64,000 bases of DNA from Escherichia coli (GCF_009931435.1 NZ_CP043414.1); one strand, 5' to 3'; positions 6,067 to 57,110 are shown, numbered from the stretch's first letter. Program-made: numbers and translations. The notes: generated by a model not told the origin, from the letters alone.

Positions 6067-6110
6067 TTCCTGCTATCCTTCGCGGCAGTTTTTCTTATTG
6101 AGGTTGCTTT

Positions 6111-12395: not shown

Positions 12396-15152
12396 TTACC
12401 CAAGAATTTTGCTGGCTTCGCGCGCCACATTATCCATCTCGTCCAGCAGTTCCAGAAGCTCTGGCTCCAAATCTTCTTCTTTAGTACCGCTGCGTAGCTG
12501 TTGTTCGATCAGTTGGCAGAGATTCTTCATACGCGGCACACCGCTATAGCCGCAACTGCCATGCAGTTTATGAATCAAATCAACCAGGCCTTCCGGGTTT
12601 TCTCCAACCAGCTGTTCCTCAACTTTGTTGCGAACTTCAGGCAGGAAATCGAGTAACATTTGCAGCATATCGCGCGCTAAATCGGTTTTTCCTGCTGCCT
12701 GGCGTAGTGCCAGTTGCCAGTCGAGGGTCGCATTCGGGTTCACCACAATTTCATTGAATTCGGGGGTCACGACGCGAGAGGAAATACCGCTGCCAGGCTT
12801 GTAGCGCAACAGCAAATTATGCAATCGTTCTTCTTCAATCGGTTTCGCCAGATAATCGCTCATCCCTGCGCCAAGCAGCTTCTCTTTTTGCCCGGCCATT
12901 GCATGCGCCGTTACCGCGATAACCGGCGTTTGTTGCTGATGGGGGAGCTGGTGGATGAGTTCGCAGGCCCGAATACCGTCCATGTCCGGCATTTGAATAT
13001 CCATTAAGATCAAATCGAACGGCATCTGTTTCGCCCGTTCAACCGCCTGATGCCCGCTATCGCAAAGTTCCACATGTTGCACCATATCTTCCAGCAATGC
13101 GCCGATAAGTTTCAGGTTAGCGGGGTTGTCATCAACCGCCATGACTGTCATTGCCAGCTTACTTTCATCGGTTACAGGCAAAAGCGTGTTTTGTTTGTGA
13201 TGACAAAATTCCGTCAGGGCAGGGAACAGGCGCGTAGGTGTTAATGGTTTCAGCAGACACGCGCCGATACCATCTTGCTTAAGTTTTTCAGCATTGACTT
13301 GTGCATGGCAAGGAAGTGCCAGCATCAGAAAATCGGTCATCGATACCGCTTTCGCTAATCGCTCATGTTGCATTGTTAGCGGCTCGCGGAAGGTCACCGC
13401 AATGCCTAATAACATCATGTCGTAATGCGCGGGAGGCAGCGCGGAGAACGTTGGGCTATAAACCACTTCCAGCGGCGTTTCACTTAAAATATCCAGCGTG
13501 CATTGCGCTGCTGCGGAGTTTGGTTCGACATAGGCCAGGCGCTTGCCGGCGAGGCACTGGGTGGATGGCCCTTCGATAATAATGTTCGGATTCAGATCGA
13601 GATTAATGTGGAACCAGAAAGTTGAACCGCGATTCGGCTGGCTATGGAACGAAATATCGCCGCCCATTTCATTAACCAGTTTCTGTGTGATCACCAGCCC
13701 CAGCCCGGTGCCACCATGACGGCGGGAAATACTGGCATCAGCCTGTCGGAAGGCCTGGAATAAGCGCGATTGATCGCGTTCAGGAATACCAATGCCGGTA
13801 TCCCGAATCTGCACTTCAATCTGCACTTTGGTATTACTCAGCGCACGTTTTTCTACCAGAATATCAATGTTGCCATTCTCGGTGAATTTAATTGCATTCC
13901 CTACCAGGTTAGTGATGATTTGCTGTAATCGCAGTGGGTCGCCAATTACGTTATCGGGCACGTCGCTCTTAATATTGAGCGTCAGTTCCAGCCCTTTATC
14001 GTGAGAAGAATGTGCCAGCAGGGTAACGACTTCATCCAGCGTGCTGCGTAGTGGGAATGGAATACTTTCCAGAATCAGCTTACCTGCTTCCAGTTTCGAG
14101 AAGTCGAGAACATCATTAATAATTGCCAGCAAATTATTTGCCGAACGTTCAATCGTATTCAGGTGATCGCGCTGCGTTGGTGTTAATTCTGTTTTCAGCG
14201 TCAGGCGGGTAAAGCCAATAACACCATTCAGTGGTGTACGCAGCTCGTGTGACATATTTGCCAGAAACTCGGATTTAATACGCGCCGCTTCCTGGGCGCG
14301 CTTTTTCGCCAGATCCAACTCAACGTTCTGAATTTCCATCTGCTCCAGCGTTTCACGCAGATCGGACGTCGCCTGGTCGATATTGTGCTGCATCTCTTCG
14401 TGATAAGCTGCCAGCGACATTGCCATCGAGTTGATGCCATTTTTCAGCATATCCAGCTCGCCGAGCATAAATCCTTCCACTCGGCTGTCGAGTTGTCCGC
14501 GACGGATACGGTCGACGGTATTCACCATGTTGCGAATTGGACCGGTTACATCACGCATGAGTCGCCAGCCAAAAATAAGCGCAATACCGATACAAAACAG
14601 CATCATCACGCTGGAAATAAAGATCTCTTTATATTGCTGCAAGCGAACCGATTTAAGATCCAGCTCAAGCGCAATATATCCCAACATATTTTGACTATTT
14701 TTGGCATCGCTACTGGGCGATTCGTCGGGGGAGTAACTCTCAGAAATAATCGGCGTGCGGAGGATCATAATATCGCCGTCACGAGTGACAGTGAGCTGGC
14801 GAGGAAACGGCACGTTGCTGCCGAGCTGCATTGATGAGGGATCAAGATGAAAATTGGAGGTGACAAAGAGTCGGTTATTTTCATCATAAACCGAAATCGC
14901 GCGAACAATATCGGAATGGCGACGATGCAGTACGCTTATTAACTGACCGATAGATTCGCGATTTTGCAGGCTCATGCCATATTCAGTAGAAACTGCAAGC
15001 GGCTCAATAATGCTGGCTCCGGCATCTTCCAGTTGACGCTGCAAGTCGTTATAGCGATGCACGACGAAAAAGATACTCAGCAATAAACCAATAAGGACGG
15101 TCGGTGCCAGGATCAGAATCATCATGCGTGCGCGCAGGCTGTAGTTGGTCAT
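12396..15152 (-). CDS. barA: hybrid sensor histidine kinase BarA (BarA/UvrY two-component system)
   Basis: 918-aa [27 protein letters not shown]... with HAMP, HisKA (SHELRTPLN), ATPase, receiver ([14 protein letters not shown]) and HPt domains. Confidence 0.95.
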
Positions 15153-23626: not shown

Positions 23627-24520
23627 TTACCAGCGGCCAGACGCGCCGCCACCGCCAGAAGAACCGCCACCTCCGCTAAATCCGCCGCCACTTGAGCCGC
23701 CACCGGAAGAGGATGAAGAAGAACCTTTTCTTGAAGCTCTTTCTTTACCGAGCGTCTTGTATTTGGCTCGTAGCTTTTTATTAACGATAAGCCAAAAGAT
23801 AAGCAGCGCTACGATCGCAAAAGGCGTTAACATACCGCAGGCAACGATTAAATTCGTCCATGGTCCTGGCTCGGCAACATAGAGGAATACCATCCCGTAA
23901 ATTGCGGCAGTGAGAGTTATCCAGGGTAAATTCGACGGATCGGTAAAAACAATAAAATATGAAAGCACTGCCAGCAATATAATTACAGCAAGCGAAAATG
24001 GGATAGGGGGATTGATACTGTAATAATTCCCCCTGCCTTCCGGTAATTCACCATTCATCAGAAGTGCGCCGATATTTTCGCTTGCCAGTGTTAACCCCCC
24101 CATCAGGTCATCACTTTTGAAAGCAGGGATTAATATATCACGGATAATCTTTGCCGCTTGCAGGTCGGTAACCACCCCTTCCAGCCCATAGCCGACTTCT
24201 ATACGAACAGCATGATCTTCCCAGGCAACCAGAAGTAAAATGCCATCGTTTCGCTGCTTATCTCCCAGTTTCCAGCTATCAAAAACGCGTGTTGCATATT
24301 GTTCAATGGTATCGTCTCCGGTGGATGGCACTATTAATACGGCAACCTGTGCCCGTGTTTTTTGTGTAATATCCTGCAGCTGTTGTGTCAGTGATTGTTG
24401 TTCAGACGTGCTTAAGGTACCAGTAATATCGGTCACCTGTTGGCGCAGCTCCGGCACAGCAATTTGCTGGGCAAGCACAGGAAGGCACCATAAAGTGAGT
24501 AGAAAAAGGATTATACGCAT
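23627..24520 (-). CDS. TPM-domain membrane protein (YgcG-like), paralogue 1
   Basis: ORF 23627..24532 starts with TTG; the ATG at 24520 gives MRIILFLLTLWCLPVLAQQ... (signal peptide), TPM-type N-terminal domain, hydrophobic segments and a C-terminal Gly/Ser tail ending GGGGASGRW. Confidence 0.8.
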   Translation of the reverse strand: MRIILFLLTLWCLPVLAQQIAVPELRQQVTDITGTLSTSEQQSLTQQLQDITQKTRAQVAVLIVPSTGDDTIEQYATRVFDSWKLGDKQRNDGILLLVAWEDHAVRIEVGYGLEGVVTDLQAAKIIRDILIPAFKSDDLMGGLTLASENIGALLMNGELPEGRGNYYSINPPIPFSLAVIILLAVLSYFIVFTDPSNLPWITLTAAIYGMVFLYVAEPGPWTNLIVACGMLTPFAIVALLIFWLIVNKKLRAKYKTLGKERASRKGSSSSSSGGGSSGGGFSGGGGSSGGGGASGRW

Positions 24521-24525
24521 AACGA

Positions 24526-25674
24526 TCACCAACGGTCGGATGAACCGCCACCGCCAGAAGAACCGCCGCCACCGCGGAAAGAGTTTTTCGACGAAGAACG
24601 AGAATGAGCATTACGATTCCCCGTTTTCTTGTTGCTTTTATGCCCTGATCCCAGTTTAAGATTGCCAGTAGATTTGGCCACAATGATCAGCAGAACGATG
24701 CCAGCAATGGTTATTGGGCCGATAAAATGATCAATTAGCCCAATAATTGTTGAGATGAACGCAATATCTTTATTACTGGCAAATACCAGGCACCATCCCA
24801 CAACAATTATCAGCAGCACGACAAACAATGAATTTCGTCCTGATTCACGAACCTGCGGAGCCTTCTTTTGTTTTTTCACTTTAGCGTTTTTATTTTGGGG
24901 GGCCAGCATCATAGGAAATGCGCGGCATATATTAAAAACTACCGCGAGACGCTGCCAGCAGATTGCTGCGAAAAATAAACTAAAACAAACGACCGATATC
25001 CGTCGAATGATGACATCGTTCTGAAAGCAGAAAAACCAGACCATAGGGGTAATCATCGATATCATCCATATGCCAGGCCCTGGATGGGTGGTAAATCGCC
25101 AGAGGACAACGATGGCAACGATCATCAGCAGTGTCCAGGCAAGACATGGCAGAGAGCGTTGCGGATTAGCAAACAGATGATTGGCTAAAGCATCCAAAGG
25201 GCTAAGATTCGCTTTTATATAGGTAAACTGTGCGATGCCTTCAATTCCCTGCGTTAACCCGGAGAAGAGATTATTTTTTTTGAATTCCGGTTGCATATGG
25301 TAATGAACAATTTGCGCAGCTTGTTCCGGTGGCAGCATCTCTTCCAGTCCATGCCCAATCTTCATTGACGCCAGCCCTTCCGGCCAAACGACGAGAATTA
25401 AGATACCTTCGCCGTACCGCTTCTCTCCAACAGGTTTCCAGTGATATAACCCGTAGCTTTGCGAGGCTGCAAGTTTAATGTCTTTACCCCCAGTGGTCGG
25501 CGTTACCAACACGGCCACCTGAAAGTGGTTTTGCTGCTCGAGAGTCTGTAATTGTTGAGTTAAAGCAGTTTGTTCTTCTGTCGTTAATGTCCCGGTTAAG
25601 TCAGTTACTGAAGGCAATTGTTCAGCGAATGCCTGGAAACCACATAGCATCAGAAGTAAGAGAAAAATACGCAT
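24526..25674 (-). CDS. TPM-domain membrane protein, paralogue 2 (longer, polytopic)
   Basis: 382-aa ORF MRIFLLLLMLCGFQAFAEQLPSVTDLTGTLTTEEQ...; ATG at 25674-25672 with AAGGAA RBS; C-terminus GGGGSSGGGGSSDRW. Confidence 0.8.
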   Translation of the reverse strand: MRIFLLLLMLCGFQAFAEQLPSVTDLTGTLTTEEQTALTQQLQTLEQQNHFQVAVLVTPTTGGKDIKLAASQSYGLYHWKPVGEKRYGEGILILVVWPEGLASMKIGHGLEEMLPPEQAAQIVHYHMQPEFKKNNLFSGLTQGIEGIAQFTYIKANLSPLDALANHLFANPQRSLPCLAWTLLMIVAIVVLWRFTTHPGPGIWMISMITPMVWFFCFQNDVIIRRISVVCFSLFFAAICWQRLAVVFNICRAFPMMLAPQNKNAKVKKQKKAPQVRESGRNSLFVVLLIIVVGWCLVFASNKDIAFISTIIGLIDHFIGPITIAGIVLLIIVAKSTGNLKLGSGHKSNKKTGNRNAHSRSSSKNSFRGGGGSSGGGGSSDRW

Positions 25675-25688
25675 TTCAATTCCTTTTG

Positions 25689-26621
25689 TTACCAGCGCCC
25701 GGAGGCGCCACCGCCGCCAGATGAACCGCCGCCGCCGCTGAAATTATCATTGTCAAAAGAGGATGAAGAGGAAGATGACGACGATGATGAAGAACGCCAG
25801 GAGGCCGAGTTACTTCTTTCGTAGCGTGACGGTCGGTTGGCACTGCGCATCGAATCCCGAACCTTTTTGCCGAAGGGGGTAAAAGCGATAGCGACAGCCA
25901 GGAACGGTGTGGCGAAGCAGAGTAATGTTGCGAGTACTCCCCAGCTTCCGCCGAAACCTGCTATAGGTAAAACAAAGGCCAGTACAATAGCTGTGAAGCA
26001 AATTAGTCCCAGCGTTTTGAAATATCCTCTGGCGGAAATAAAGGTCAGTACTATTGCCCAGACTAACAAAGCCCACCAACCGCTAAAGGGCAAAGGGTGA
26101 TCGGTCGGTGTTATCGTTGCTAAATTATTCCCCGTCAGACGATTATCAATATCGCTTATTCCCTTTTGCAAGCCGCCAGCAAGGTCGCCATTTTTAAATG
26201 CCGGAATAATACTGTTGCGAATAATTTTCCCGGACTGCGCATCCGTAATAACGCCTTCCAGTCCGTAACCGATTTCAATACGCACGGTATGATCCTGCCA
26301 GGCGACTAACAGTAGAACGCCATCATCGCGGTCTTTATCACCCGGTTTCCAGCTATCGAATACCCGCGTAGCGTACTGCTCGATGGTTTCATCGCCCGTT
26401 GTTTCAACCACTAACACGACCAGTTGTGCGTGGCTTTTTTGCGTCAGCTCTTTAATCTGATTGGTCAAAGTATTTACTTCATCGTTCGTCAATTTACCGG
26501 TTAAGTCATTCACATACCTGGGTGATTCAGGCACTGGAATTTGTATGGCAAACACAGATGAACAAAAGAAAGCCATAAGGAAGATAAAATTTCGCACAGG
26601 ACTTCCTCGCTTAATGAGCAT
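25689..26621 (-). CDS. TPM-domain membrane protein, paralogue 3
   Basis: 310-aa ORF; shares identical stretches with paralogue 1 (TIEQYATRVFDSWK); C-terminal poly-Ser then GGGGSSGGGGASGRW; start codon uncertain (ATG at 26621 overlaps lemA by 11 nt; an internal Met before the signal peptide is possible). Confidence 0.75.
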   Translation of the reverse strand: MLIKRGSPVRNFIFLMAFFCSSVFAIQIPVPESPRYVNDLTGKLTNDEVNTLTNQIKELTQKSHAQLVVLVVETTGDETIEQYATRVFDSWKPGDKDRDDGVLLLVAWQDHTVRIEIGYGLEGVITDAQSGKIIRNSIIPAFKNGDLAGGLQKGISDIDNRLTGNNLATITPTDHPLPFSGWWALLVWAIVLTFISARGYFKTLGLICFTAIVLAFVLPIAGFGGSWGVLATLLCFATPFLAVAIAFTPFGKKVRDSMRSANRPSRYERSNSASWRSSSSSSSSSSSSFDNDNFSGGGGSSGGGGASGRW

Positions 26622-27213
26622 TAGTATTCTGGCTAAAATCTATTGTCGGGGCTTTACTCACAGCGGCGACATCATCCGGCAAATAATTTTTCTTTGGTGT
26701 GTAATCCATGACTTTTGCGGTTAACACTGCGGGGAATTTGCGGATAGTGACATTATATTGTTCGATGGCTTTAATATATCTTCCTCGCGCAACGGCAATT
26801 CGATTTTCACTTCCTTCGAGCTGTACCATCAAATTTTGATAGAGTTCCTGGGCCTTTAGCTCAGGGTAACGTTCACTAATTATCGTTAACTGACCGAGAG
26901 TGCGAGACACCTGCGCCTGAGCTTGTTGCCAGGTTTGTAATTTTTGTTCATCTCCCGGAGTTTGCTGAAGAGCGTTACTGGCGCGATTAGCCTGACTACG
27001 TGCCAATGTTACGGCTTCCAGTACCTCTTGTTCATGGCTGGAATAACCTTTAATACTGGCGACAAGATTAGGAATAAGATCGGCGCGACGTTGATATTGA
27101 TTTAATACCTCAGACCAGGAAGCGTTAACCTGCTCATCATAGGTTTGAATATCGTTATATCCACAGCCTGATAAATTGAAAATAAATATAATTACGATGA
27201 ATGTTCTGAGCAT
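26611..27213 (-). CDS. lemA: LemA-family lipoprotein
   Basis: 200-aa ORF MLRTFIVIIFIFNLSGCGYNDIQ... with lipobox LSGC and LemA-like coiled region; first gene of a four-gene minus-strand operon. Confidence 0.8.
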   Translation of the reverse strand: MLRTFIVIIFIFNLSGCGYNDIQTYDEQVNASWSEVLNQYQRRADLIPNLVASIKGYSSHEQEVLEAVTLARSQANRASNALQQTPGDEQKLQTWQQAQAQVSRTLGQLTIISERYPELKAQELYQNLMVQLEGSENRIAVARGRYIKAIEQYNVTIRKFPAVLTAKVMDYTPKKNYLPDDVAAVSKAPTIDFSQNTNAH

Positions 27214-28395: not shown

Positions 28396-29218
28396 GAGTT
28401 CCCCGCGCCAGCGGGGATAAACCGGCGGTAAAATTGTTGCTACCGTCTGGCCCTTGCGAGTTCCCCGCGCCAGCGGGGATAAACCGACGGTGCAGGATCT
28501 GTAATTCTTGCTCGCGATGAGTTCCCCGCGCCAGCGGGGATAAACCGAGTTATCAGGATTATTCCCGCTCCGCCGCCAGGAGTTCCCCGCGCCAGCGGGG
28601 ATAAACCGTCGTTTTTGTGGTGGGAGTGTGCGGATTGGTAGAGTTCCCCGCGCCAGCGGGGATAAACCGGCTGACATTGTCAGCTATAACCTTACAATGT
28701 GGAGTTCCCCGCGCCAGCGGGGATAAACCGACGTCCCGCTATTTCCTGGACAGTGTGTAGCGGAGTTCCCCGCGCCAGCGGGGATAAACCGGCGGCGCTA
28801 ACGTGATAATCACGATCAATTATGAGTTCCCCGCGCCAGCGGGGATAAACCGCGGGCGTTAACCTTTTTATAGGCATCTTCCTTGAGTTCCCCGCGCCAG
28901 CGGGGATAAACCGGCTTGCAGCAGCTGCGCCAACATCTGAATACGGAGTTCCCCGCGCCAGCGGGGATAAACCGCTTTTTCCCGTGACAAGATCCAGTTA
29001 ACTGTTGAGTTCCCCGCGCCAGCGGGGATAAACCGCATCACTGGACGCCCATTTGAATAACTCACAGGAGTTCCCCGCGCCAGCGGGGATAAACCGATTC
29101 AGCAAATAGCGAATTTCATAAATATGATGTGTTCCCCGCGCCAGCGGGGATAAACCGTACGTTAAACGCCATCTGTCATGGGTCGTCATGTGTTCCCCGC
29201 GCCAGCGGGGATAAACCA
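28396..29218 (+). CRISPR. type I-E CRISPR array: 14 repeats, 13 spacers (32-33 bp)
   Basis: 29-bp repeat GAGTTCCCCGCGCCAGCGGGGATAAACCG at 28396, 28458, 28519, 28580, 28641, 28702, 28763, 28824, 28885, 28946, 29007, 29068; last two repeats (29129, 29190) are GTGTT variants and the final one ends ...AAACCA. Confidence 0.97.
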
Positions 29219-29671: not shown

Positions 29672-29809
29672 ATATTCCTTGTAAAAACAGGGATAAACCG
29701 AACTAGTTAAAGTTTTTATTATGTTCCCTGCATCAGCGGGGATAAACCGGACTTGTTATCATTTTTTAAGTTGTCGAACTTATGTTCCCCGCGCCAGCGG
29801 GGATAACCA
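29672..29809 (+). CRISPR. degenerate mini-array remnant (about 3 decayed repeats, one clear 32-bp spacer)
   Basis: TTCCTTGTAAAAACAGGGATAAACCG (ends 29700), ATGTTCCCTGCATCAGCGGGGATAAACCG (29721-29749), 32-bp spacer 29750-29781, ATGTTCCCCGCGCCAGCGGGGATAACC (29782-29808). Confidence 0.75.
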
Positions 29810-29855
29810 TTCAGGTATGTTCAGGCCGGGCAGTTTCCCGCCCGGCCTTCCTCAC

Positions 29856-45712: not shown

Positions 45713-45918
45713 CGAGCCGCATTCCGGCATTTAAACATGAATATAGCAGGGGAAATCAACAGTTATAGAATGGCGTCGGGTGCTTGAGGCTGTCTGGCGT
45801 TGAGCATTCGCGAGGTTCCAGATGGACAAAAGCCCCGGGCGATATTTCTATCAACCTGAGGCTCGCGTTCGAACGTAGCAATTCGAATGTTAGTCTCTTC
45901 TTTGCAGGGAGGCAAGAC

Positions 45919-46071
45919 ATGCTGACAAAATATGCCCTTGTGGCAATCATCGTACTGTGTTGTACAGTACTGGGATTCACGCTGATGGTAGGCGACTCGT
46001 TGTGTGAGTTGAGTATCAGAGAACGTGGTATGGAGTTTAAGGCAGTTCTCGCTTACGAACCGAAGAAGTAG
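45919..46071 (+). CDS. Hok/Gef-family type I toxin (hok-like; position corresponds to the K-12 sokX locus)
   Basis: 50-aa [53 protein letters not shown] with GGGAGG RBS; N-terminal TM helix, conserved SLCE and AYE motifs; upstream GCTTGAGGCT element typical of hok mRNA 5' ends. Confidence 0.7.
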
Positions 46072-46309: not shown

Positions 46310-48967
46310 GTGACTTTCTTTGATTTCTGGGGAAAAACCCGACGTGGCGAGAAAGAGGGTGGCGACGATTATCACCTTCTTTGCTGGCATTCGCTGGATG
46401 TAGCCGCGATAGGCTATTTAATGGTCAAAAACAACTGTTTCGGGCTGGCTGACTATTTTCGTCAATTAGGTTTCGCTGACACGGATCAGGCAGCACAATT
46501 TTTCGCCTGGTTGTTGTGCTGGCACGATACTGGAAAATTTGCCCGCTCATTTCAGCAACTTTACCTGCACCCACAACTCAAGGTTCCGGAAGGCGCAAGA
46601 AAGAATTACGAAAAGATCTCTCATTCAACGCTGGGTTACTGGTTGTGGCATCATTATTTAATTGAATGTGAAGAGTTGCTTCCTTCATCTTCACTCTCTT
46701 TGCGCAAACTTAAACGAGTAATAGATATGTGGATGCCCGTGACGACCGGGCATCATGGTCGGCCTCCTGACCGTATCGATGAACTGGACAACTTTCTGCC
46801 TGAAGACAAAGCTGCCGCACGGGATTTTCTCCTTGAAATCAAGGTACTGTTTCCGCTCATCGAGATCCCTACATTCTGGGATGATGACGAGGGCGTTGAA
46901 CTTATAAAACATTTTTCCTGGTATATCTCTGCAACCGTCGTACTCGCAGACTGGACGGGATCGTCAACGCGGTTTTTTCCACGCGTTGCACAGGCAATGG
47001 ATATTAAAGATTACTGGCAGAAGGCTTTAGTTCAGGCTCAAAACGCATTAACCGTCTTTCCCCCAAAAGCAGAAAGCGCGCCTTTCACTGGAATTAATAC
47101 GCTGTTTCCTTTTATTGAGAACCCAACACCGTTACAGCAAAAGGTGTTGGATCTGGATATCAGCCAGCCAGGACCACAGTTGTTTATTCTGGAAGATGTG
47201 ACTGGCGCAGGTAAAACAGAAGCGGCGCTTATCCTGGCGCACAGGTTGATGTCTGCGGGGAAAGCACAGGGTTTGTTTTTTGGCCTGCCAACAATGGCAA
47301 CGGCCAATGCCATGTACGATAGGCTGGTAAAAACCTGGCTTGCTTTCTATTCGCCACAATCCCGCCCCAGCCTGGTGCTGGCACACAGCGCTCGTTCGCT
47401 AATGGATCGCTTTAACGCATCGCTGTGGTCTGGTGATTTTGTGGGGTCAGAAGAACCGGATGAACAAGCGTTCAGTCAGGGATGTGCGGCCTGGTTTGCT
47501 GACAGTAACAAGAAGGCGTTGCTGGCTGAAATTGGCGTCGGCACGCTGGATCAGGCGATGATGGCGGTGATGCCGTTCAAACATAATAATCTGCGGCTTC
47601 TGGGGCTGAGTAACAAAATCCTGCTAGCCGATGAGATCCACGCCTGTGACGCTTATATGTCGTGCATTCTTGAAGGGCTGATCGAGCGGCAGGCGCGTGG
47701 CGGAAACAGCGTTATTTTGCTTTCTGCTACGTTGTCTCAACAGCAGCGTGACAAACTCGTCGCCGCCTTTGCGCGTGGTGCAGAGGGCCAGCAAGAAGCT
47801 CCGTTGCTGGAAAAAGATGATTATCCCTGGCTGACGCATGTCACGAAATCCGATGTGCATTCGCACCGGGTAGCGACGCGCAAAGACGTTGAGCGCAGCG
47901 TGAGTGTGGGTTGGCTTCATAGCGAACAAGAGTGTATTGCGCGTATCGAATCGGCGGTAAGTCAGGGGAAATGCATCGCCTGGATTCGGAATTCTGTCGA
48001 TGACGCCATCCAGGTTCATCGTCAGCTGCTTGCCCGCGGCGTCATTCCTGCTTCCAGCCTTTCACTTTTTCATAGCCGCTTTGCTTTCAGCGATCGCCAG
48101 CGAATTGAAACGGAGACGCTGGCACGCTTTGGTAAAGAAGACTGTTCACAGCGTGCCGGAAAAGTCCTCATTTGTACTCAGGTCCTGGAGCAGAGCGTCG
48201 ACTGCGACCTGGACGAAATGATTTCCGACCTTGCCCCTGTTGATTTACTGATCCAGCGAGCAGGGCGATTACAGCGACATATCCGCGATATTAATGGTCA
48301 GTTAAAGCGTGACGGTAAAGACGAGCGTCACCCTCCTGTATTGCTGATTCTGGCCCCCGTCTGGAACGACTCTCCGGGTGAAGAATGGTTTGGCTGTGCC
48401 ATGCGTAACAGTGCATTTGTCTATCCCGATCATGGGCGAATCTGGTTGACGCAGCGTGTGCTGCGTGAACAAGGCGCGATTCAGATGCCACACTCAGCCC
48501 GGCTTCTGATTGAATCAGTCTACGGTGAGGACGTGGTAATGCCGGAAGGGTTTGCCCGCAGCGAGCAGGAGCAAGTGGGCAAATACTACTGCGATCGTTC
48601 AATGGCTAATAAGTTTGTGCTGAACTTCAGGCCCGGCTATGCCGCCAATATCAACGATTACCTCCCGGAAAAACTGTCGACACGTCTGGCTGAAGAGTCT
48701 GTTTCCCTGTGGCTGGCTAGCTGTATTGGCGGTGTGGTGAAGCCTTATGCCACCGGTGCACACGCATGGGAAATGAGCGTTGTCAGAGTGCGCCAAAGCT
48801 GGTGGAAAAAACATCGGGATAAGTTTTCTTTACTGGAAGGGGATGCGTTCAGGCAGTGGTGCGTTGAACAGCGGCAAGATCCGGAGATGGCAAACGTGAT
48901 TTTGGTCACCGATGACGAAAGTTGTGGATATTCGGCTACGGAGGGATTGATTGGCAAGGTTGGTTGA
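46310..48967 (+). CDS. cas3: Cas3 HD-nuclease/helicase (type I-E)
   Basis: 885-aa ORF (GTG start, AAGGA RBS); HD motif ...LLCWHDTGKF..., Walker A VTGAGKTEA, DEIH box LLADEIHACD, then helicase C-terminal region. Confidence 0.93.
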   Translation: MTFFDFWGKTRRGEKEGGDDYHLLCWHSLDVAAIGYLMVKNNCFGLADYFRQLGFADTDQAAQFFAWLLCWHDTGKFARSFQQLYLHPQLKVPEGARKNYEKISHSTLGYWLWHHYLIECEELLPSSSLSLRKLKRVIDMWMPVTTGHHGRPPDRIDELDNFLPEDKAAARDFLLEIKVLFPLIEIPTFWDDDEGVELIKHFSWYISATVVLADWTGSSTRFFPRVAQAMDIKDYWQKALVQAQNALTVFPPKAESAPFTGINTLFPFIENPTPLQQKVLDLDISQPGPQLFILEDVTGAGKTEAALILAHRLMSAGKAQGLFFGLPTMATANAMYDRLVKTWLAFYSPQSRPSLVLAHSARSLMDRFNASLWSGDFVGSEEPDEQAFSQGCAAWFADSNKKALLAEIGVGTLDQAMMAVMPFKHNNLRLLGLSNKILLADEIHACDAYMSCILEGLIERQARGGNSVILLSATLSQQQRDKLVAAFARGAEGQQEAPLLEKDDYPWLTHVTKSDVHSHRVATRKDVERSVSVGWLHSEQECIARIESAVSQGKCIAWIRNSVDDAIQVHRQLLARGVIPASSLSLFHSRFAFSDRQRIETETLARFGKEDCSQRAGKVLICTQVLEQSVDCDLDEMISDLAPVDLLIQRAGRLQRHIRDINGQLKRDGKDERHPPVLLILAPVWNDSPGEEWFGCAMRNSAFVYPDHGRIWLTQRVLREQGAIQMPHSARLLIESVYGEDVVMPEGFARSEQEQVGKYYCDRSMANKFVLNFRPGYAANINDYLPEKLSTRLAEESVSLWLASCIGGVVKPYATGAHAWEMSVVRVRQSWWKKHRDKFSLLEGDAFRQWCVEQRQDPEMANVILVTDDESCGYSATEGLIGKVG

Positions 48968-49063
48968 TATGCCTGCGACAGGATTCTCTGAATAGTTGAT
49001 ACACAAAAAAGGATGGAAGGATGGATAACCGACCTGGGATGGTCTTTTTACGAGAGGATGCGT

Positions 49064-50626
49064 ATGAACTCGTTTTCACTTCTGACAACCCCGTGGTTGC
49101 CCGTTCGTTATAAAGACGGAACGACAGGCAAACTGGCGCCAGTCGATCTGGCGGATGAAAATGTTGTCGATATCGCTGCGCCGCGGGCAGATCTCCAGGG
49201 TGCGGCATGGCAGTTTTTGCTGGGACTACTACAAACCAGCTTCGCGCCCAAAAATCACGGTCGTTGGGATGATATATGGGAAGACGGACTGGAAGCTGAA
49301 AAGCTAAGGGAAGCATTGCTGTCTTTAGAACATGCTTTCCAGTTTGGCCCAGATTCCCCTTCATTTATGCAGGATTTCGAGGCGCTTACGGGAGATAAAG
49401 TTCCTGTCGCTTCGTTACTGCCTGAAATTCCCGGCGCTCAAACAACGAAGTTCAATAAAGACCACTTTATTAAGCGTGGCGTGACTGAACACATATGCCC
49501 TCATTGTTCCGCGTTAGCGCTGTTTTCCCTACAGTTAAATGCGCCGTCAGGCGGCAAAGGCTATCGCACCGGTTTGCGCGGCGGTGGGCCAATGACGACG
49601 CTGATTGAATTACAGGAATATCAGGGCAATCAACAAACACCCTTGTGGCGCAAACTGTGGCTCAACGTGATGCCGCAGGATGAATCTGACTTACCGCTAC
49701 CCAAAAAATTTGGCGATCTGGTTTTCCCCTGGCTTGGCCCGACGCGTACCAGTGAACTGGCCGGTGCGGTGGTAACTGATGATCAGGTCAACAAACTCCA
49801 GGCGTACTGGGGAATGCCTCGGCGCATACGTGTTGATTTTAATACCACGACAGTCGGCAACTGCGATATTTGCGGTGAGCAGAGCGACGCGCTCCTGAGC
49901 CTGATGACGACCAAAAATTACGGTGCGAATTATGCCATGTGGCAGCATCCCTTAACGCCCTACCGTATACCACTTAAAGAGGGCGGCGAGCTTTACTCGG
50001 TTAAACCACAACCGGGCGGTTTAATCTGGCGCGACTGGCTAGGACTTATCGAAACGGGTAAGTCAGAAAACAATACGGAACTTCCCGCGCTGGTGGTGAA
50101 ACTCTTTAATGCCAGCAGTCTGAAACAGGCAAAAGTGGGCCTGTGGGGATTTGGCTATGATTTCGACAACATGAAAGCGCGCTGTTGGTACGAACACCAT
50201 TTCCCGCTACTGCTCAATAAAAAAGAAGGCCAGATACCAAAGCTGCGGCTGGCTGCGCAAACGGCTTCACGGATTCTAAGTCTGTTACGGAGTGCATTGA
50301 AAGAAGCATGGTTCTCCGATCCAAAAGGTGCACGGGGTGATTTCAGTTTTGTGGATATCGACTTCTGGAACAAAACTCAGCATCGCTTCCTGAGGTTAGT
50401 GCGTCAAATTGAAGAAGGTCAGGAGCCGGATGAATTACTCAGCAAATGGCAAAAGGAAATGTGGTTATTCGCGCGTCAGGATTTTGACGAGCGGGTATTC
50501 ACTAATCCTTATGAGCCCGTTGATTTGAAACGCGTCATGACCGCGCGCAAGAAATATTTTACAACATCGGCGGAGAAGCAAAGTGCTAAAGCCGCCAGGG
50601 AGAAAAAGCAGGAGGCTGCTGAATGA
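49064..50626 (+). CDS. casA: Cse1/CasA, Cascade large subunit
   Basis: ORF track starts 49013; the ATG at 49064 has a GAGAGG RBS and gives MNSFSLLTTPWLPVRYKDGTTGK..., a Cse1-family N-terminus; about 520 aa. Confidence 0.85.
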   Translation: MNSFSLLTTPWLPVRYKDGTTGKLAPVDLADENVVDIAAPRADLQGAAWQFLLGLLQTSFAPKNHGRWDDIWEDGLEAEKLREALLSLEHAFQFGPDSPSFMQDFEALTGDKVPVASLLPEIPGAQTTKFNKDHFIKRGVTEHICPHCSALALFSLQLNAPSGGKGYRTGLRGGGPMTTLIELQEYQGNQQTPLWRKLWLNVMPQDESDLPLPKKFGDLVFPWLGPTRTSELAGAVVTDDQVNKLQAYWGMPRRIRVDFNTTTVGNCDICGEQSDALLSLMTTKNYGANYAMWQHPLTPYRIPLKEGGELYSVKPQPGGLIWRDWLGLIETGKSENNTELPALVVKLFNASSLKQAKVGLWGFGYDFDNMKARCWYEHHFPLLLNKKEGQIPKLRLAAQTASRILSLLRSALKEAWFSDPKGARGDFSFVDIDFWNKTQHRFLRLVRQIEEGQEPDELLSKWQKEMWLFARQDFDERVFTNPYEPVDLKRVMTARKKYFTTSAEKQSAKAAREKKQEAAE

Positions 50627-51159
50627 GTATTGTAAAAGAGGAGCACAAAGCCACGCTGCGCAAATGGCACGAGGAATTGCAGGAAAAACGCGGCAATCGT
50701 GCCAGTCTGCGGCGTAGTACGACGGTTAATGATGTTTGTTTGTCAGAAGGGTTTCGTTCTCTGCTGATGCAGACCCACACGTTGTGGAAAGTTGAAGCGC
50801 AAGAGTGGCGTTTTACCGCACTGGCACTGGTCGCTGCAGTTAGCGCCAATGTAAAAGCCATTGATGAACGGCAGCCTTTTGCCGCGCAGCTGGCGGCAGT
50901 AATGTCAGAAGGGCGGTTTTCGCGCCTGTCGGCAGTAAAAACGCCGGATGATTTACTGCGCCAGTTACGTCGCGCGGTCAAATTATTAAACGGTTCCGTC
51001 AATCTTATCTCTTTGGCAGACGATATTTTCCGCTGGTGCCAGGAGAGTGACGACCTGCTCAACCATCACCGCCGTCAGCAGCGGCCAACAGAATTTATCC
51101 GTATCCGCTGGGCGCTGGAATATTACCAGGCTGGCGACGCCGATAACGAACAAAATTAA
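50623..51159 (+). CDS. casB: Cse2/CasB, Cascade small subunit
   Basis: 178-aa ORF; GGAGG RBS; ATGA overlap with the casA stop; operon position. Confidence 0.85.
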   Translation: MSIVKEEHKATLRKWHEELQEKRGNRASLRRSTTVNDVCLSEGFRSLLMQTHTLWKVEAQEWRFTALALVAAVSANVKAIDERQPFAAQLAAVMSEGRFSRLSAVKTPDDLLRQLRRAVKLLNGSVNLISLADDIFRWCQESDDLLNHHRRQQRPTEFIRIRWALEYYQAGDADNEQN

Positions 51160-51173
51160 TAAAGGACTATCTC

Positions 51174-52229
51174 ATGACGACATTTATTCAGCTCCATTTG
51201 TTAACCGCTTACCCTGCAGCCAACCTTAACCGTGATGACACCGGTGCGCCGAAAACCGTGGTGCTGGGTGGAGCAACGCGTCTGCGCGTTTCCTCGCAAA
51301 GTCTGAAACGTGCGTGGCGCACTTCTGCACTTTTTGAACAGGCGCTGGCGGGCCATATTGGTATTCGTAGTGGGCGTATCGCGCGCGAGGCAGCAACTAT
51401 CATGATTGAGAAAGGAATCGAAGAAAAAAAAGCCATCGAATGGGCGGCAGATATTGCCGATTATCTTGGTAAAGCCAAAAAAGACAAAAAAACAAAAGAT
51501 CCGCTCACTAACGCTGAAACTGAACAGCTCGTCCATATCAGCCCTGCAGAATTTGACGCCGTAAAAGCGCTGGCCCATCAACTGGCAGAAGAAAAGCGCG
51601 CGCCAAAAGAGGACGATCTCGCTTTGTTACGTAAAGATCGTATGGCGGTAGATATCGCCATGTTTGGTCGTATGCTGGCGAATAAACCCGAGTTTAATGT
51701 TGAAGCCGCCTGTCAGGTCGCGCACGCGTTTGGTGTCAGTGAAACGATTGTCGAAGATGATTTTTTCACCGCCGTTGATGATTTGCGCCAGGCCTCTGAA
51801 GATGCTGGTGCAGGGCATCTTGGTGAAACTGGGTTTGGTTCTGCGCTGTTCTACACCTATATCTGCATTGATAAAGATCTGCTGGTCGAAAACCTCGGCG
51901 GTGACGAAGCATTAGCTAATCAGACCCTGCGCGCCTTTACGGAAGCAGCGTTTAAAGTTTCCCCAACCGGTAAACAAAACAGCTTTGCCAGCCGTGCCTA
52001 CGCCTCCTGGGCGCTGGCAGAAAAAGGCACCGAACAACCGCGTTCTCTGGCGGCGGCTTTCTATGAACCCATTAATGGCACACGTCAGTTAGATGTGGCA
52101 GTGCAGCGTATTACAACGCTTCGCGAAAACATGAATACGGTTTACGAACAGAAGACCGAATGCGCAAGTTTTGACGTGATGAACAAACAGGGAAGCATGA
52201 AGGACGTGCTGGACTTTATCTGCGCGTAA
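51174..52229 (+). CDS. casC: Cas7e/CasC, Cascade backbone
   Basis: 351-aa ORF MTTFIQLHLLTAYPAANLNRDDTGAPKTVVLGGATRLRVSSQSLKRAWR... (Cas7 RAMP signature). Confidence 0.9.
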   Translation: MTTFIQLHLLTAYPAANLNRDDTGAPKTVVLGGATRLRVSSQSLKRAWRTSALFEQALAGHIGIRSGRIAREAATIMIEKGIEEKKAIEWAADIADYLGKAKKDKKTKDPLTNAETEQLVHISPAEFDAVKALAHQLAEEKRAPKEDDLALLRKDRMAVDIAMFGRMLANKPEFNVEAACQVAHAFGVSETIVEDDFFTAVDDLRQASEDAGAGHLGETGFGSALFYTYICIDKDLLVENLGGDEALANQTLRAFTEAAFKVSPTGKQNSFASRAYASWALAEKGTEQPRSLAAAFYEPINGTRQLDVAVQRITTLRENMNTVYEQKTECASFDVMNKQGSMKDVLDFICA

Positions 52230-52239
52230 GGGGCGGCTT

Positions 52240-52986
52240 ATGAGCCAATATCTGATTTTTCAGCTTCATGGGCCAATGGCATCCTGGGGCGTTGATGCAC
52301 CCGGTGAGGTGCGTCATACCCATGAACTGCCTTCGCGTTCAGCATTGCTGGGGCTGCTGGCTGCCGGGTTAGGGATACGGCGTGATGACACCGAATGCTT
52401 AAACGCGTTTAATCGCCACTATTCACTGGTGGTTTGCGCCAGCCGTAACCCGCGCTGGGCACGGGATTATCACACGGTCCAGATGCCAAAAGAGGTGCGT
52501 AAAGCGCGTTATTTCAGCCGTCGCGAAGAGTTGAGCGACCCTGATCTTCTAAGCGCGATTATCTCCCGGCGCGACTACTACACCGATGCCTGGTGGATGG
52601 TGGCCGTGGCAACAACAGCTGATGCGCCTTACAGCCTCGAACAGTTGCAGGAAGGTTTACGCCATCCGGTTTTTCCGCTTTATCTGGGGCGAAAAAGCCA
52701 TCCGCTGGCGTTACCCCTTGCGCCGTTACTGCTCGAAGGCAACGCGTCTGATGCCTTACGTACCGCATATCAACAGTATCAGGATCGTTTCCACGAACTA
52801 AAAGTCTCACTCCCGAAACTTCAGGATGAATGCTGGTGGGAAGGGGAACACGACGGCCTGGTCGCGAGCAAAATATTACGCCGCCGGGATGTTCCTTTAA
52901 ATCGTCAGCAGTGGCTGTTTGGGGAACGCACTGTCAATCAGGGGCCGTGGCTCAGCAAGGAGGAACCATGTACCTCTCAAGAATAA
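52240..52986 (+). CDS. casD: Cas5e/CasD
   Basis: 248-aa ORF MSQYLIFQLHGPMASWGVDAPGEVRHTHELPSRSALLGLLAAGLGIRRDD... (Cas5e N-terminal signature). Confidence 0.9.
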   Translation: MSQYLIFQLHGPMASWGVDAPGEVRHTHELPSRSALLGLLAAGLGIRRDDTECLNAFNRHYSLVVCASRNPRWARDYHTVQMPKEVRKARYFSRREELSDPDLLSAIISRRDYYTDAWWMVAVATTADAPYSLEQLQEGLRHPVFPLYLGRKSHPLALPLAPLLLEGNASDALRTAYQQYQDRFHELKVSLPKLQDECWWEGEHDGLVASKILRRRDVPLNRQQWLFGERTVNQGPWLSKEEPCTSQE

Positions 52987-53614
52987 CCTTACATACCGGC
53001 CAGCTTTCCCCAGCGCAGTTGCTGCATCTGGTGGATCGCGGTGAATATGTGATGCATCAGTGGCTGTGGGATCTTTTCCCTGGCGGCAAAGAAAGGCAAT
53101 TTCTTTATCGTCGGGAAGAACTCCAGGGCGCGTTTCGCTTTTTTGTCCTGTCGCAGGAACGCCCGGCGGAAAGTGAAACGTTCACCATCGAATGCCGGTC
53201 ATTTGCGCCGGAGCTGCGTACCGGACAATCCCTTTTTTTCAACCTGCGAGCGAATCCAACAGTCTGTAAAGCGGGTAAGCGCCACGATCTGCTGATGGAG
53301 GCGAAACGGCAGGTGAGGGGGCAGGCGGAAGGAAGTGATGTCTGGTTGCATCAACAACAGGCGGCGCTGGGCTGGCTGGCTGCGCAGGGAGAGAGAAGTG
53401 GTTTTACACTGCTGGATACCTCGGTCGATGCCTACCGACAACAGCAACTGCGGCGGGAAAATGCCCGGCAACTGATCCAGTTCAGTAGCGTGGATTATAC
53501 GGGGATGCTGACGGTCACCGAGCCAGGGTTATTTCTGCAACGTCTCTGCCTGGGGTATGGCAAAAGCCGGGCGTTCGGCTGTGGTCTGATGTTAATCAAA
53601 CCCGGAGCAGAGGC

Positions 53615-53618
<4 letters not shown>
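52968..53618 (+). CDS. casE: Cas6e/CasE, pre-crRNA endoribonuclease
   Basis: ORF track starts 52830; the ATG at 52968 with AGGAGG RBS gives MYLSRITLHTGQLSPAQLLHL...; contains FNLRANP and C-terminal glycine-rich GYGKSRAFGCGLM motifs. Confidence 0.88.
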
Positions 53619-54828
<1,210 letters not shown>

Positions 54829-54924
54829 GTTACCCGTTCTTTAAAAATAAGGAAATGTTTGAATTTAGTTGGTAGATTGTTGATGTGGAATAAAATTGTT
54901 TAAAAACAGATACGTATGCTTAGT
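54829..54924 (+). promoter_or_regulatory. CRISPR leader of the cas2-proximal array
   Basis: AT-rich 96 bp; AGTTGGTAGATTGT at 54868-54881, 43 bp upstream of the first repeat. Confidence 0.8.
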
Positions 54925-56050
54925 GTGTTCCCCGCGCCAGCGGGGATAAACCGTGGATTATGACGCCAGAGAGCTTCCTGTTTGCGTGTTCCCCGCGCCA
55001 GCGGGGATAAACCGCTGGCTAATAACATCCCACTGAATATTATTTCGTGTTCCCCGCGCCAGCGGGGATAAACCGAGGTGTGGCATGCGGGGAATTATGA
55101 TCCGGTAGTGTTCCCCGCGCCAGCGGGGATAAACCGTGACAACGGCCGGCCGCTCTTTTTGCGGTCATGTGTTCCCCGCGCCAGCGGGGATAAACCGATC
55201 ATCGGCATCATCTCGTGATACTCATCCGGCGTGTTCCCCGCGCCAGCGGGGATAAACCGCCCAGGCTTTACGTGAGCTGGCGGATGTGGCCGTGTTCCCC
55301 GCGCCAGCGGGGATAAACCATACGGTCAAGCGATATCAGGGGTACTGTGTCGTGTTCCCCGCGCCAGCGGGGATAAACCGGGCGCCGCATCTTTATCGTA
55401 AAGCATGTAAAGGTGTTCCCCGCGCCAGCGGGGATAAACCGACCGCTCACACCCAGACAAGCGCCACTAACGTGTGTTCCCCGCGCCAGCGGGGATAAAC
55501 CGAACGCCGCATCAGCTAAATACGCTAAAAAAATGTGTTCCCCGCGCCAGCGGGGATAAACCGCGGCTGATACTCAGGAGCAGGCCAGAGAGCGTGTGTT
55601 CCCCGCGCCAGCGGGGATAAACCGTACCACCTGTGTATTGAGTTACGTCGCCGGGGGTGTTCCCCGCGCCAGCGGGGATAAACCGGAGCTTCATCGGTGG
55701 TTCTGGGAGCAACGGGAGTGTTCCCCGCGCCAGCGGGGATAAACCGGCACAAGTGACTACATCAAGGATGGGGAATGGGTGTTCCCCGCGCCAGCGGGGA
55801 TAAACCGATTAACATTGCAATTGAATTGACGCGTATGAGGTGTTCCCCGCGCCAGCGGGGATAAACCGCAGGCAGCACGGCGGGTTTTGCCCGGATATTT
55901 GTGTTCCCCGCGCCAGCGGGGATAAACCGCAAAACCAATAGGTGCTTTCCACATTGCAGAAGTGTTCCCCGCGCCAGCGGGGATAAACCGCTCTCGGTTC
56001 TGGGGTACTGTTACCCATAACTGAGCTCCCCCGCGTCAGCGGGGGAACTC
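54925..56050 (+). CRISPR. type I-E CRISPR array: 19 repeats (18 canonical plus degenerate terminal), 18 spacers
   Basis: 29-bp repeat GTGTTCCCCGCGCCAGCGGGGATAAACCG at 54925, 54986, 55047, 55108, 55169, 55231, 55292, 55352, 55413, 55474, 55535, 55596, 55657, 55718, 55779, 55840, 55901, 55962; terminal degenerate GAGCTCCCCCGCGTCAGCGGGGGAACTC (56023-56050); spacers 31-33 bp. Confidence 0.97.
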
Positions 56051-56072
56051 CCAGCTCCCATTTTCAAACGCC

Positions 56073-57110
56073 TCATGACGCCTTCACCAGCTCCTTCACC
56101 AGCGGTAGCATTATCCGCATAACGTCACGGCAGCGACGTTCTATTCTTCCAGGAAGCGCCTTATCAATATGCTGTTGATTATCAAGCCTTACATCATGCC
56201 AGCTATTTCCCGCCGGGAAGGCCGGTGTTTTTGCGCGTTGCTGATAACCATCCTTATTTCCAAGATTCCAGTTGGTCGCCTCCACCGAAAGTACCGCAAT
56301 ACCGGCTTTGTCGAAAACTTCTGCATCATTACAACACCCGGTGCCTTTCGGATAGTTTTTATTCAAACCTGGATTTGTTGTCGCTGCAATCCCATGATTA
56401 CGCGCAATTGCCAGCGCTCGATCACGGGTTAATTTCCTGACAGCCTCTGGTGTATTTACACCACTATTAAAATACAATTTATCGCCAACAATTAAGTTAT
56501 CGAGATTAATCACCAGCAGCGTATTTTTCTTTTCGGTGTCACTCATCCGTTTGAGTAAATTCTCAGCGCCTAATTTTCCTTCCTCTTCGCCGCTGGTCGC
56601 CACAAATCGAATACCATACTCGGTAGGCGTATTTTTCAGGCGTTCAGCCAGTTCCAGCATGACACCTAAACCTGCGGCGTTATCATCCATTCCTTGTAAC
56701 GTTAGCCCGCCGAGATTGGCATCGGCGTCAGCATCGCTCAGCGGGGCGTAAGTATCCAGATGCGCCATAATGATGATCTGCTGCGGCGCTTTGCCTTCAT
56801 GAGCGGCAATCACCGTACTTCCCGTCACGTTATGCCAGCTCTTGCGATTATCGCGGGCGGTGTAAATATATCGGCTATTAAATGTCCGAATATCACTGCG
56901 ATAACCCATCTGTTGAAACTGTTGGCGAATATAATCGGCAGATAACATTTCTGCAGGAGTTCCGGTCATGCGTCCCGGAAAGAAAGTAGCAATATGTCGT
57001 GCCTGTGTATTAGCAAAATCACCAGGTTTAGGTGACGAGGCGTGTACGGGGAGAATAAAGCATACGCCGAGCGCCAGGGCAGCGGTACGGTGGCGCAATG
57101 CGGAAAACAT
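56073..57110 (-). CDS. iap: alkaline phosphatase isozyme conversion aminopeptidase
   Basis: 345-aa ORF MFSALRHRTAALALGVCFILPVHASSPKPGDF... (signal peptide, M28-type peptidase). Confidence 0.92.
   Translation of the reverse strand: MFSALRHRTAALALGVCFILPVHASSPKPGDFANTQARHIATFFPGRMTGTPAEMLSADYIRQQFQQMGYRSDIRTFNSRYIYTARDNRKSWHNVTGSTVIAAHEGKAPQQIIIMAHLDTYAPLSDADADANLGGLTLQGMDDNAAGLGVMLELAERLKNTPTEYGIRFVATSGEEEGKLGAENLLKRMSDTEKKNTLLVINLDNLIVGDKLYFNSGVNTPEAVRKLTRDRALAIARNHGIAATTNPGLNKNYPKGTGCCNDAEVFDKAGIAVLSVEATNWNLGNKDGYQQRAKTPAFPAGNSWHDVRLDNQQHIDKALPGRIERRCRDVMRIMLPLVKELVKAS

Follow-up and report, generated by a model that had tools for sequence, protein, structure and literature searches.

The cas2-proximal array in the Escherichia coli DNA analysed here (GCF_009931435.1, NZ_CP043414.1; a stretch of 64,000 nucleotides, hereafter the window) is almost certainly a CRISPR2.1 array of the O157:H7-type I-E system, in which encounters with mobile DNA are recorded in order of time. 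Fourteen of its 18 spacers match mobile elements with 0–4 mismatches. The array is real and typical, and it is fully explained as belonging to an E. coli I-E variant that has already been described; nothing found contradicts its identity. Counted against the reading as a record were the four unmatched spacers, five others with 2–4 mismatches to their nearest known targets and the TCA flank of one protospacer (spacer A7). All coordinates refer to the window, and all features given lie on the + strand, except iap.

Organization and Orientation of the Array

A pattern search of the whole window found 18 copies of the repeat GTGTTCCCCGCGCCAGCGGGGATAAACCG at 54925–55990 with a 61-nt period. Seventeen are exact, and the variant repeat (55292–55320), with A and not G as its final base, lies directly 5′ of the 31-nt spacer A7. 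The degenerate terminal repeat GAGCTCCCCCGCGTCAGCGGGGGAACTCC (56023–56051) is found 32 nt past the last canonical repeat and is directly followed by CCAGCTCCCATTTTC, likewise in K-12 and in O157:H7 Sakai. The complete CRISPR2.1 array, made up of 18 CRISPR-A repeats, 18 spacers and the terminal repeat, extends over 54925–56051. The repeats are the 29-nt type-2 repeats of E. coli and the spacers are all unique, with a length of 32 nt in 16 of the 18, 33 nt in A5 and 31 nt in A7. For 18 near-identical 29-mers at constant spacing, chance is irrelevant.

The preliminary description had placed a CRISPR array of 18 spacers next to cas2. The repeat pattern scan and the cas2/iap context bear out this call, the 18 canonical repeats plus the terminal repeat give the same spacer count, and the sequences quoted for the first, second and last spacers read identically in the window. 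Its start at 54925 was right; its end at 56050 is one base short since the 29-nt terminal repeat reaches 56051, which is immaterial. The 31 spacers that it counted for two arrays have to be raised to 32, because the window contains, besides the 18 treated here, 13 spacers in an array at 28396–29218 (spacers labelled B) and one in a two-repeat remnant at 29721–29810.

Folding of the palindromic repeat gives a hairpin with a stem of 7 bp and a loop of 4 nt (−15.2 kcal/mol, z = −3.2). This is the Cas6e hairpin, and cleavage by that enzyme is predicted.

An AT-rich leader of 96 nt (54829–54924), of the leader-A type, adjoins cas2. A consensus scan located one promoter-like site in it (TTGGTA, 16 nt, TAAAAT; 54869–54896), agreeing at 9 of 12 positions. 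The site is the sole one in the region, against a shuffle expectation of 0.8, so the count is not above expectation. When the leaders are aligned, its TTGGTA falls on the TTGGTG box of K-12, and it is regarded here as a candidate promoter. At the distal end, the array is bounded by iap (56073–57110, − strand), a conserved gene that carries this name in every E. coli match. The order is then cas2, leader on the cas2 side, array, degenerate last repeat on the iap side, and iap.

The orientation, previously deduced from the leader and the degenerate repeat, is confirmed by both and by two further comparisons. The leader beside cas2 is identical to that of O157:H7 Sakai at 91 of 96 positions, and the iap end carries the degenerate repeat. 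In addition, AWG is found on the 5′ side of 13 of 14 protospacers when the spacers are read from leader to distal end, with no motif on the 3′ side. Finally, the array of E. coli N96 has the same distal anchor spacer, A18, with other spacers at its leader end.

The cas Operon and Variant Assignment

A complete type I-E cas operon of eight ORFs (46310–54828) precedes the leader, consisting of cas3 (46310–48967), cse1 (49013–50626), cse2 (50623–51159), cas7 (51174–52229), cas5 (52240–52986), cas6e (52968–53618), cas1 (53615–54538) and cas2 (54535–54828). All eight Cas products have their full length and exceed the NCBIfam cut-offs for I-E; with the K-12-specific equivalogs of Cas3 and Cse1, the scores stay below the respective cut-offs.

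Two I-E variants have been defined in E. coli, cas-EK/leader-T/CRISPR-T (K-12 type) and cas-EO/leader-A/CRISPR-A (O157:H7 type) (Diez-Villasenor et al. 2013, PMC3737337). The A-type repeat begins with GTGTT on the strand read here, which corresponds to a repeat ending in AACAC in the orientation of that paper (PMC3737337). All 18 repeats are of the A type. By its repeat, leader, Cas proteins and PAM spectrum, the locus belongs to the cas-EO/leader-A/CRISPR-A variant. Its repeat, leader and Cas proteins all differ from those of the K-12-type variant.

Spacer Targets

The spacers were joined by runs of N and searched by blastn (E ≤ 10) against phages, plasmids and complete E. coli genomes. The matched loci were then scanned with all the spacers, a maximum of 7 or 8 mismatches being allowed according to the locus, and the flanks were read. 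Scans of viral contigs with 22-mers and of metagenomes with 24-mers demand exact matches, which diverged targets would escape. The spacers had been described as being of unknown origin, and a search with a check for AAG or ATG at the protospacers had been proposed. It assigned 14 of the 18 to mobile elements, 13 of these 14 with a PAM, and the PAM-flanked matches in phages, phage-plasmids, prophages and plasmids support the idea that the spacers have functional targets. Seven spacers (A2, A10, A12 and A14–A17) combine an exact match with an AWG PAM, and five (A3, A5, A8, A9 and A18) have 2–4 mismatches to the nearest known target.

Five families of target elements were recognised: SSU5-type phage-plasmids, the STEC384 prophage, an IncHI-type plasmid, a 31-kb conjugative plasmid and a P2-like prophage. 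Each was matched at least twice, the count for the P2-like prophage including spacer B13 of the other array.

The phage-plasmids are matched by A6, A7 and A18, and also by A14 and A17, which are treated further below. In the SSU5-type phage-plasmid PhiR41_1, A6 (55260–55291) targets a gene that matches the PHROG family "tellurite resistance", with 1 mismatch and PAM ATG; the homologous gene of P1 is annotated tciA, and the match there is weaker (26/29). A7 (55321–55351) is identical to a segment of the minor tail protein M gene in PhiR41_1, Cyrano and CMS-2020a, flanked by TCA. A18 (55991–56022), the anchor of the array, which is also present in N96, matches a conserved unannotated stretch in SSU5, PhiR41_1 and Klebsiella phage-plasmids with 4 mismatches and AAG. 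No structured RNA was matched beneath this conserved protospacer in Rfam at E ≤ 0.01. PhiR41_1 is a circle of 108 kb with tail genes, ParA and replication genes, and is syntenic with SSU5 (about 76% identity over 16 kb aligned of a 24-kb SSU5 segment).

Several spacers point to the STEC384 prophage: A3 (55076–55107) to a tail-region gene and A5 (55198–55230) to a DUF3383 gene, each with 2 mismatches and PAM ATG, and A12 (55625–55656), common to N96, exactly to the gene for replication protein P, also beside ATG. B11 of the array at 28396–29218 hits the replication gene neighbouring the A12 target in this prophage, with 0 mismatches and AAG. A10 (55503–55534) matches an early-region ORF of the viral contig IMGVR_UViG_2713896897_000016 exactly, with PAM ATG, 1.6 kb from the A12 site of that contig and on the same strand. 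This contig is related to the STEC384 prophage.

Both conjugative elements are represented by two spacers. On the IncHI-type plasmid pE401651_221, A2 (55015–55046) is identical to positions 133922–133953, where no gene is annotated, and A15 (55808–55839) to a TraE/TraK transfer gene, both beside ATG. On pGF47-C, a 31-kb VirB-type conjugative plasmid, A8 (55381–55412) matches the coupling-protein gene and A9 (55442–55473) the ArdC gene, both with 2 mismatches and PAM ATG. The P2-like prophage is targeted by A16 (55869–55900), identical to a tail gene in strain 40EC with PAM ATG, and by B13, which matches the terminase gene in a prophage of this type with 1 mismatch and AAG. Against phages and plasmids, the array at 28396–29218 gave only a weak match of B7 to recE, with 4 mismatches.

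Two spacers fall in one gene. A14 (55747–55778), present in N96, and A17 (55930–55961) match a DUF551 gene without mismatches. Both protospacers are on one strand, that of A17 being 13 bp upstream of that of A14; the PAMs are ATG for A14 and AAG for A17. Exact targets with both PAMs are carried by phage vB_EcoP-611R6, by the E. albertii plasmid p06-3542 and by 12 E. coli chromosomes among the matches listed. The gene is also present in P22-like and Stx phages, in a plasmid with an IncY replicon and in many prophages, and an A14/A17 protospacer match occurs in 623 of 5,426 E. coli genomes. In PhiR41_1, the DUF551 sites have ACG and AGA where the exact targets carry ATG and AAG. Escape by PAM mutation was considered for these protospacers and found unconvincing, since the gene is mosaic and the altered PAMs are not clearly denser than the surrounding divergence. 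The common DUF551 allele has 6 differences over the 80 positions of the block of PAM and protospacer, and the flanks of the Stx2a phage copy have 8 over 237.

Four spacers were orphans, A1 (54954–54985), A4 (55137–55168), A11 (55564–55595) and A13 (55686–55717), for which blastn at E ≤ 10 against phages, plasmids and E. coli genomes returned nothing; A11 and A13 are common to N96. In the viral contigs of IMG/VR, A1–A5, A11 and A13 had no 22-mer match, and A10 alone was matched. A1 and A5 had no 24-mer match in metagenomes, and A1 and A2 had no protospacer in species-representative genomes, for A1 in an exact search with the full spacer.

At one stage the five newest spacers all appeared to be orphans (0/5 vs. 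11/13, p = 0.0025). This was an artefact of a listing that gave only the best place for each record. Once the orphans had been searched on their own and the loci scanned, A2, A3 and A5 could be placed, and the contrast disappeared (3/5 vs. 11/13, p = 0.53). A clustering of spacers for the same family within the array was likewise dismissed, with three adjacent pairs (A6–A7, A8–A9 and A17–A18) against about 2.0 expected by chance.

Since most of the matched targets are temperate elements commonly carried by E. coli strains, the spacers might instead be directed at prophages or plasmids of their own host, with autoimmunity or regulation of resident elements as the outcome. The preliminary description had pointed to the significance that self-targeting would have. 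With up to 7 mismatches allowed, the three arrays have no spacer with a match anywhere else in the 64-kb window, and perfect PAM-flanked self-targets are normally counter-selected where the cas genes are intact. Self-targeting, excluded as far as the 64-kb window extends, is considered improbable.

PAM Usage and the A7 Exception

AWG was found directly 5′ of 13 of the 14 protospacers, as ATG in 11 cases and AAG in 2. With a background frequency for AWG of 3.65% (determined on the phage-plasmid), the probability of this by chance is 2.8·10−18. The 3′ side of the 14 protospacers showed no motif. The matches are therefore true protospacers and not chance similarities, and the orientation of the array is fixed independently of the leader and the terminal repeat. 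The preference for ATG over AAG departs from equal use (binomial p = 0.013). Natural leader-A arrays have been reported with 34 CAT and 9 CTT of 55, where CAT equals ATG and CWT equals AWG (PMC3737337), and the ATG excess observed here agrees with this published bias.

A7 is the only matched spacer flanked by another triplet. In PhiR41_1 and Cyrano, the base 5′ of its protospacer is A (CAGTCA|TACGG...), and the repeat preceding A7 in the array also ends in A. The last repeat base is reported to enter with the spacer, so that the 29-nt repeat represents a 28-nt duplicon plus one spacer-derived base (PMC3737337 and references therein). If the last base of the "repeat" is spacer-derived here too, the A-ending repeat and the unit that is one base short fit an off-register acquisition of A7.

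The array at 28396–29218 has T-type repeats and its own leader, and both of its well-matched spacers (B11 and B13) have AAG, compared with 11 ATG and 2 AAG for the A-type array beside the cas genes. These counts could be taken to mean that two arrays of one genome, served by a single Cas1–Cas2 pair, record different PAM preferences, a proposal to which we give little credence. If it were true in many genomes, the surviving PAMs would be shaped by leader and repeat context or by array-specific interference selection, and not by the Cas1–Cas2 variant alone. As for B4, its only target is a diverged prophage copy with the flank ATA, which says nothing about the PAM.

Distribution among E. coli Genomes and Relation to N96

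The query is covered by 1,482 complete E. coli genomes whose annotation shows the layout cas1e–cas2e–CRISPR–iap. None of the 5,426 complete genomes searched has the array itself, the best full-length matches being about 84% identical. The best match for the core genes in the same set is 98.0%; therefore, the strain belongs to E. coli or a very close relative but has no near relation among the 5,426 genomes.

A comparison of spacer order with other strains, as previously suggested, identified N96, an isolate from a Tibetan pig (NZ_CM169999.1), as the only one of the 5,426 genomes that shares spacers. N96 has A11–A14 as a contiguous block and the anchor A18. It differs in nine leader-proximal spacers and, between A14 and A18, it contains five different spacers where the window array has A15–A17. 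The segment from cas6e through cas2 to the leader is 99.2% identical in the two strains, compared with 98.0% for iap–cysD and 97.6% for the ygc–cys region. Since the flanking core genes are only 97.6–98% identical, N96 is not the same clone.

The common anchor and internal block, together with the different leader end, fit polarised acquisition. The pattern can be produced by stepwise acquisition combined with internal deletions, or by exchange of array segments. According to the latter explanation, the spacer content would derive mainly from recombination between the arrays of different strains, through block exchange or deletion, and not from stepwise acquisition within the lineage. The replacement of A15–A17 by five other spacers in N96 argues for it, as does the cas6e–leader segment, which is closer to N96 than either flank is, and RM9088 carries one-mismatch versions of A12 and B9. 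Nevertheless, differential internal deletions from a longer common ancestor account for the pattern as well, stepwise acquisition predicts just such a polarised difference at the leader end, and with just one of 5,426 complete genomes sharing any block, donors are not evident. Recombination as the main source of the spacers is thus judged rather unlikely, and stepwise acquisition in the lineage is kept as the preferred reading.

The spacer set makes a good lineage marker, since a single genome among the 5,426 complete ones has any spacer in common with it.

Proposed Mechanism and Present Activity

In the preferred reading, Cas1–Cas2 inserted 33-nt fragments, cut beside AWG, at the leader-proximal repeat, so that the spacers run from A1 as the newest to A18 as the oldest. 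According to the established biology of type I-E systems, reportedly described by Brouns in 2008 and by Datsenko and Swarts in 2012, transcription of the array would start from the leader, and crRNAs with one spacer each would arise through cleavage by Cas6e at the foot of every 7-bp repeat hairpin. Cascade, guided by these crRNAs, would bind protospacers flanked by AWG, and Cas3 would degrade the DNA there. Leader transcription, Cas6e cutting and interference by Cascade and Cas3 in type I-E systems are also covered by PMC3737337. For the strain studied here, transcription, processing and interference are inferred from this general type I-E biology.

The repeated sampling of each element family could reflect primed adaptation or, equally, more than one encounter. 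Priming would place the spacers from an element on the strand of the priming protospacer, and here the strand evidence is mixed. PhiR41_1 has all five of its protospacers on a single strand (chance 1/16), but both strands are represented on the STEC384 prophage (A3 and A12 vs. A5 and B11), on pGF47-C (A8 vs. A9) and on the IncHI plasmid (A2 vs. A15).

The preliminary description spoke of this system as typically H-NS-silenced in E. coli, a view that goes back to work with K-12. Silencing of the K-12 system by H-NS is said to have been demonstrated by Pul and by Westra, both in 2010. A locus repressed in the same way would make the array a silent fossil, a set of old spacers that gives no present immunity and serves as a neutral lineage marker. 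This is a serious possibility, to which we give somewhat less than even odds. It is favoured by the H-NS silencing of the K-12 I-E system under laboratory conditions (PMC3737337) and by the mismatches that A3, A5, A8, A9 and A18 carry to their nearest known targets. In addition, the A14/A17 protospacers are widespread in prophages and plasmids of E. coli, as shown by the 623 genomes mentioned above, so that the species as a whole is not keeping these elements out. On the other hand, all eight cas genes are intact, 17 of 18 repeats are identical, and seven spacers are exact beside AWG (A7 also being exact, beside TCA). The window array and that of N96 have each gained 9–10 different leader-proximal spacers despite cas6e–leader DNA that is 99.2% identical. 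Moreover, silencing was established for the K-12 variant and not for the O157-type variant, and it cannot simply be transferred to this locus because the K-12 effector proteins are only 23–40% identical.

The addition made by this analysis is the list of targets. It leaves the current understanding unchanged and has little import beyond the strain. The array can serve as a fully annotated example of a natural O157-type I-E array whose targets are overwhelmingly temperate or plasmid-like elements, with repeated sampling of each, and the matches suggest that the CRISPR memory of E. coli is directed at phage-plasmids time and again.

Comparison with the O157:H7 and K-12 Systems

CRISPR2.1 of O157:H7 Sakai is the closer of the two reference systems in variant type. 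Its 29-nt repeat is identical to that of the window array, both arrays are located between cas2 and iap, and the leaders differ at only 5 of 96 positions. The Cas proteins are 83.6–98.3% identical, Cse2 being the most diverged (83.6%). The arrays differ in content, since Sakai has only 4 spacers, none of them common to the 18 of the window. Leader-A arrays as published have the AWG PAM with ATG as the most frequent form, the same as the window array.

The K-12 array (CRISPR I/CRISPR2.1) has the same chromosomal site, architecture, repeat hairpin and downstream sequence. Its CRISPR-T repeat differs at position 2 (GAGTT vs. GTGTT in the window), and its leader is identical at 72 of 96 positions. 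The difference is greatest in the effector genes: Cas3 and the Cascade proteins are 23–40% identical, compared with about 85% for Cas1 and Cas2, and no nucleotide alignment was obtained over 45.9–53.6 kb (cas3–cas6e). Positions 1–23708 of the window are 97.3% identical to K-12, the region adjoining the cas genes is 93–94% identical, and Iap, CysD and CysH show 98.6–100% amino acid identity (Iap 98.6%). A 3.5-kb segment of the window missing from K-12 was considered as an insertion, which was rejected since O157:H7 Sakai has it too. As to the PAM, K-12 acquires almost only beside AAG, whereas the spacers of the window array correspond mostly to ATG. The K-12 type I-E system is the experimental model, and the same mechanism is presumed for the system in the window.

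Protospacers in phage-plasmids and prophages

The protospacer of A18, the anchor spacer of the cas2-proximal array, lies in a stretch carrying no annotated gene, at 14096-14127 in the SSU5-type phage-plasmid PhiR41_1 and at 12000-12031 in SSU5. Over the 32 nt of the protospacer and 6 nt on its 5' side the two elements show no differences, in contrast to their overall identity of only about 76%. An Rfam search of this stretch gave no match; the stretch may have a conserved role in regulation or replication.

Spacers A14 and A17 of the same array target a DUF551 gene, which was compared between locus L009 (4001-4077), PhiR41_1 (23735-23811) and loci L022, L023 and L024. The gene is mosaic and common to several kinds of element: P22-like phages, Stx phages, SSU5-type phage-plasmids and two plasmids, p1303_95 with an IncY replicon and one from E. 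albertii. Its common allele has ACG and not ATG at the PAM position of A14.

The second array (28396-29218) consists of 12 GAGTT repeats, of K-12 type, followed by two GTGTT repeats, and despite these mostly K-12-type repeats, the sole cas set within the window is of O157 type. Two of its spacers, B11 and B13, are well matched, to the replication gene of an STEC384 prophage and to a P2-like terminase gene, respectively. Both protospacers have an AAG PAM, whereas the cas-proximal array is rich in ATG, a comparison based on two spacers in the second array. Spacer B4 matched an unannotated prophage site with 2 mismatches in about 450 genomes, ST131 being frequent among them, and B7 matched recE weakly.

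Related and remnant arrays

A short array with two repeats and the single spacer GACTTGTTATCATTTTTTAAGTTGTCGAACTT is located at 29721-29810. The spacer was unchanged across some 4,000 complete genomes of E. coli, K-12 among them, and the remnant is a fixed relic. We take it to be probably the CRISPR2.2 of the literature.

Spacers similar to A12 and B9 were also observed in RM9088, an E. coli crow isolate, within a CRISPR array at about 4322059-4322639 of the chromosome. Each has one mismatch and they lie less than about 600 bp apart, in one array, while in the window A12 and B9 belong to separate arrays. In the array of N96, the Tibetan pig E. coli, repeat 8 terminates in A instead of G, resembling the window repeat at 55292-55320, and single-base variants were found in repeats 2, 5 and 19.

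Neighboring genes and RNAs

A cluster of four genes on the minus strand (23627-27213) comprises one LemA-like gene, two genes with TPM domains and a 382-aa ORF, for which a family match was sought and none was found. K-12 shows an alignment gap here and lacks the cluster, while O157:H7 Sakai has it, with lemA labelled as a pseudogene.

Full-length Rfam matches on the plus strand were obtained for the CsrB small RNA (5709-6068, 380 bits) and the sok antitoxin RNA (45778-45934, 103 bits), the latter in the cysH-cas3 interval. At this spot, a Hok/gef toxin gene is annotated in Sakai, whereas K-12 retains sokX alone.
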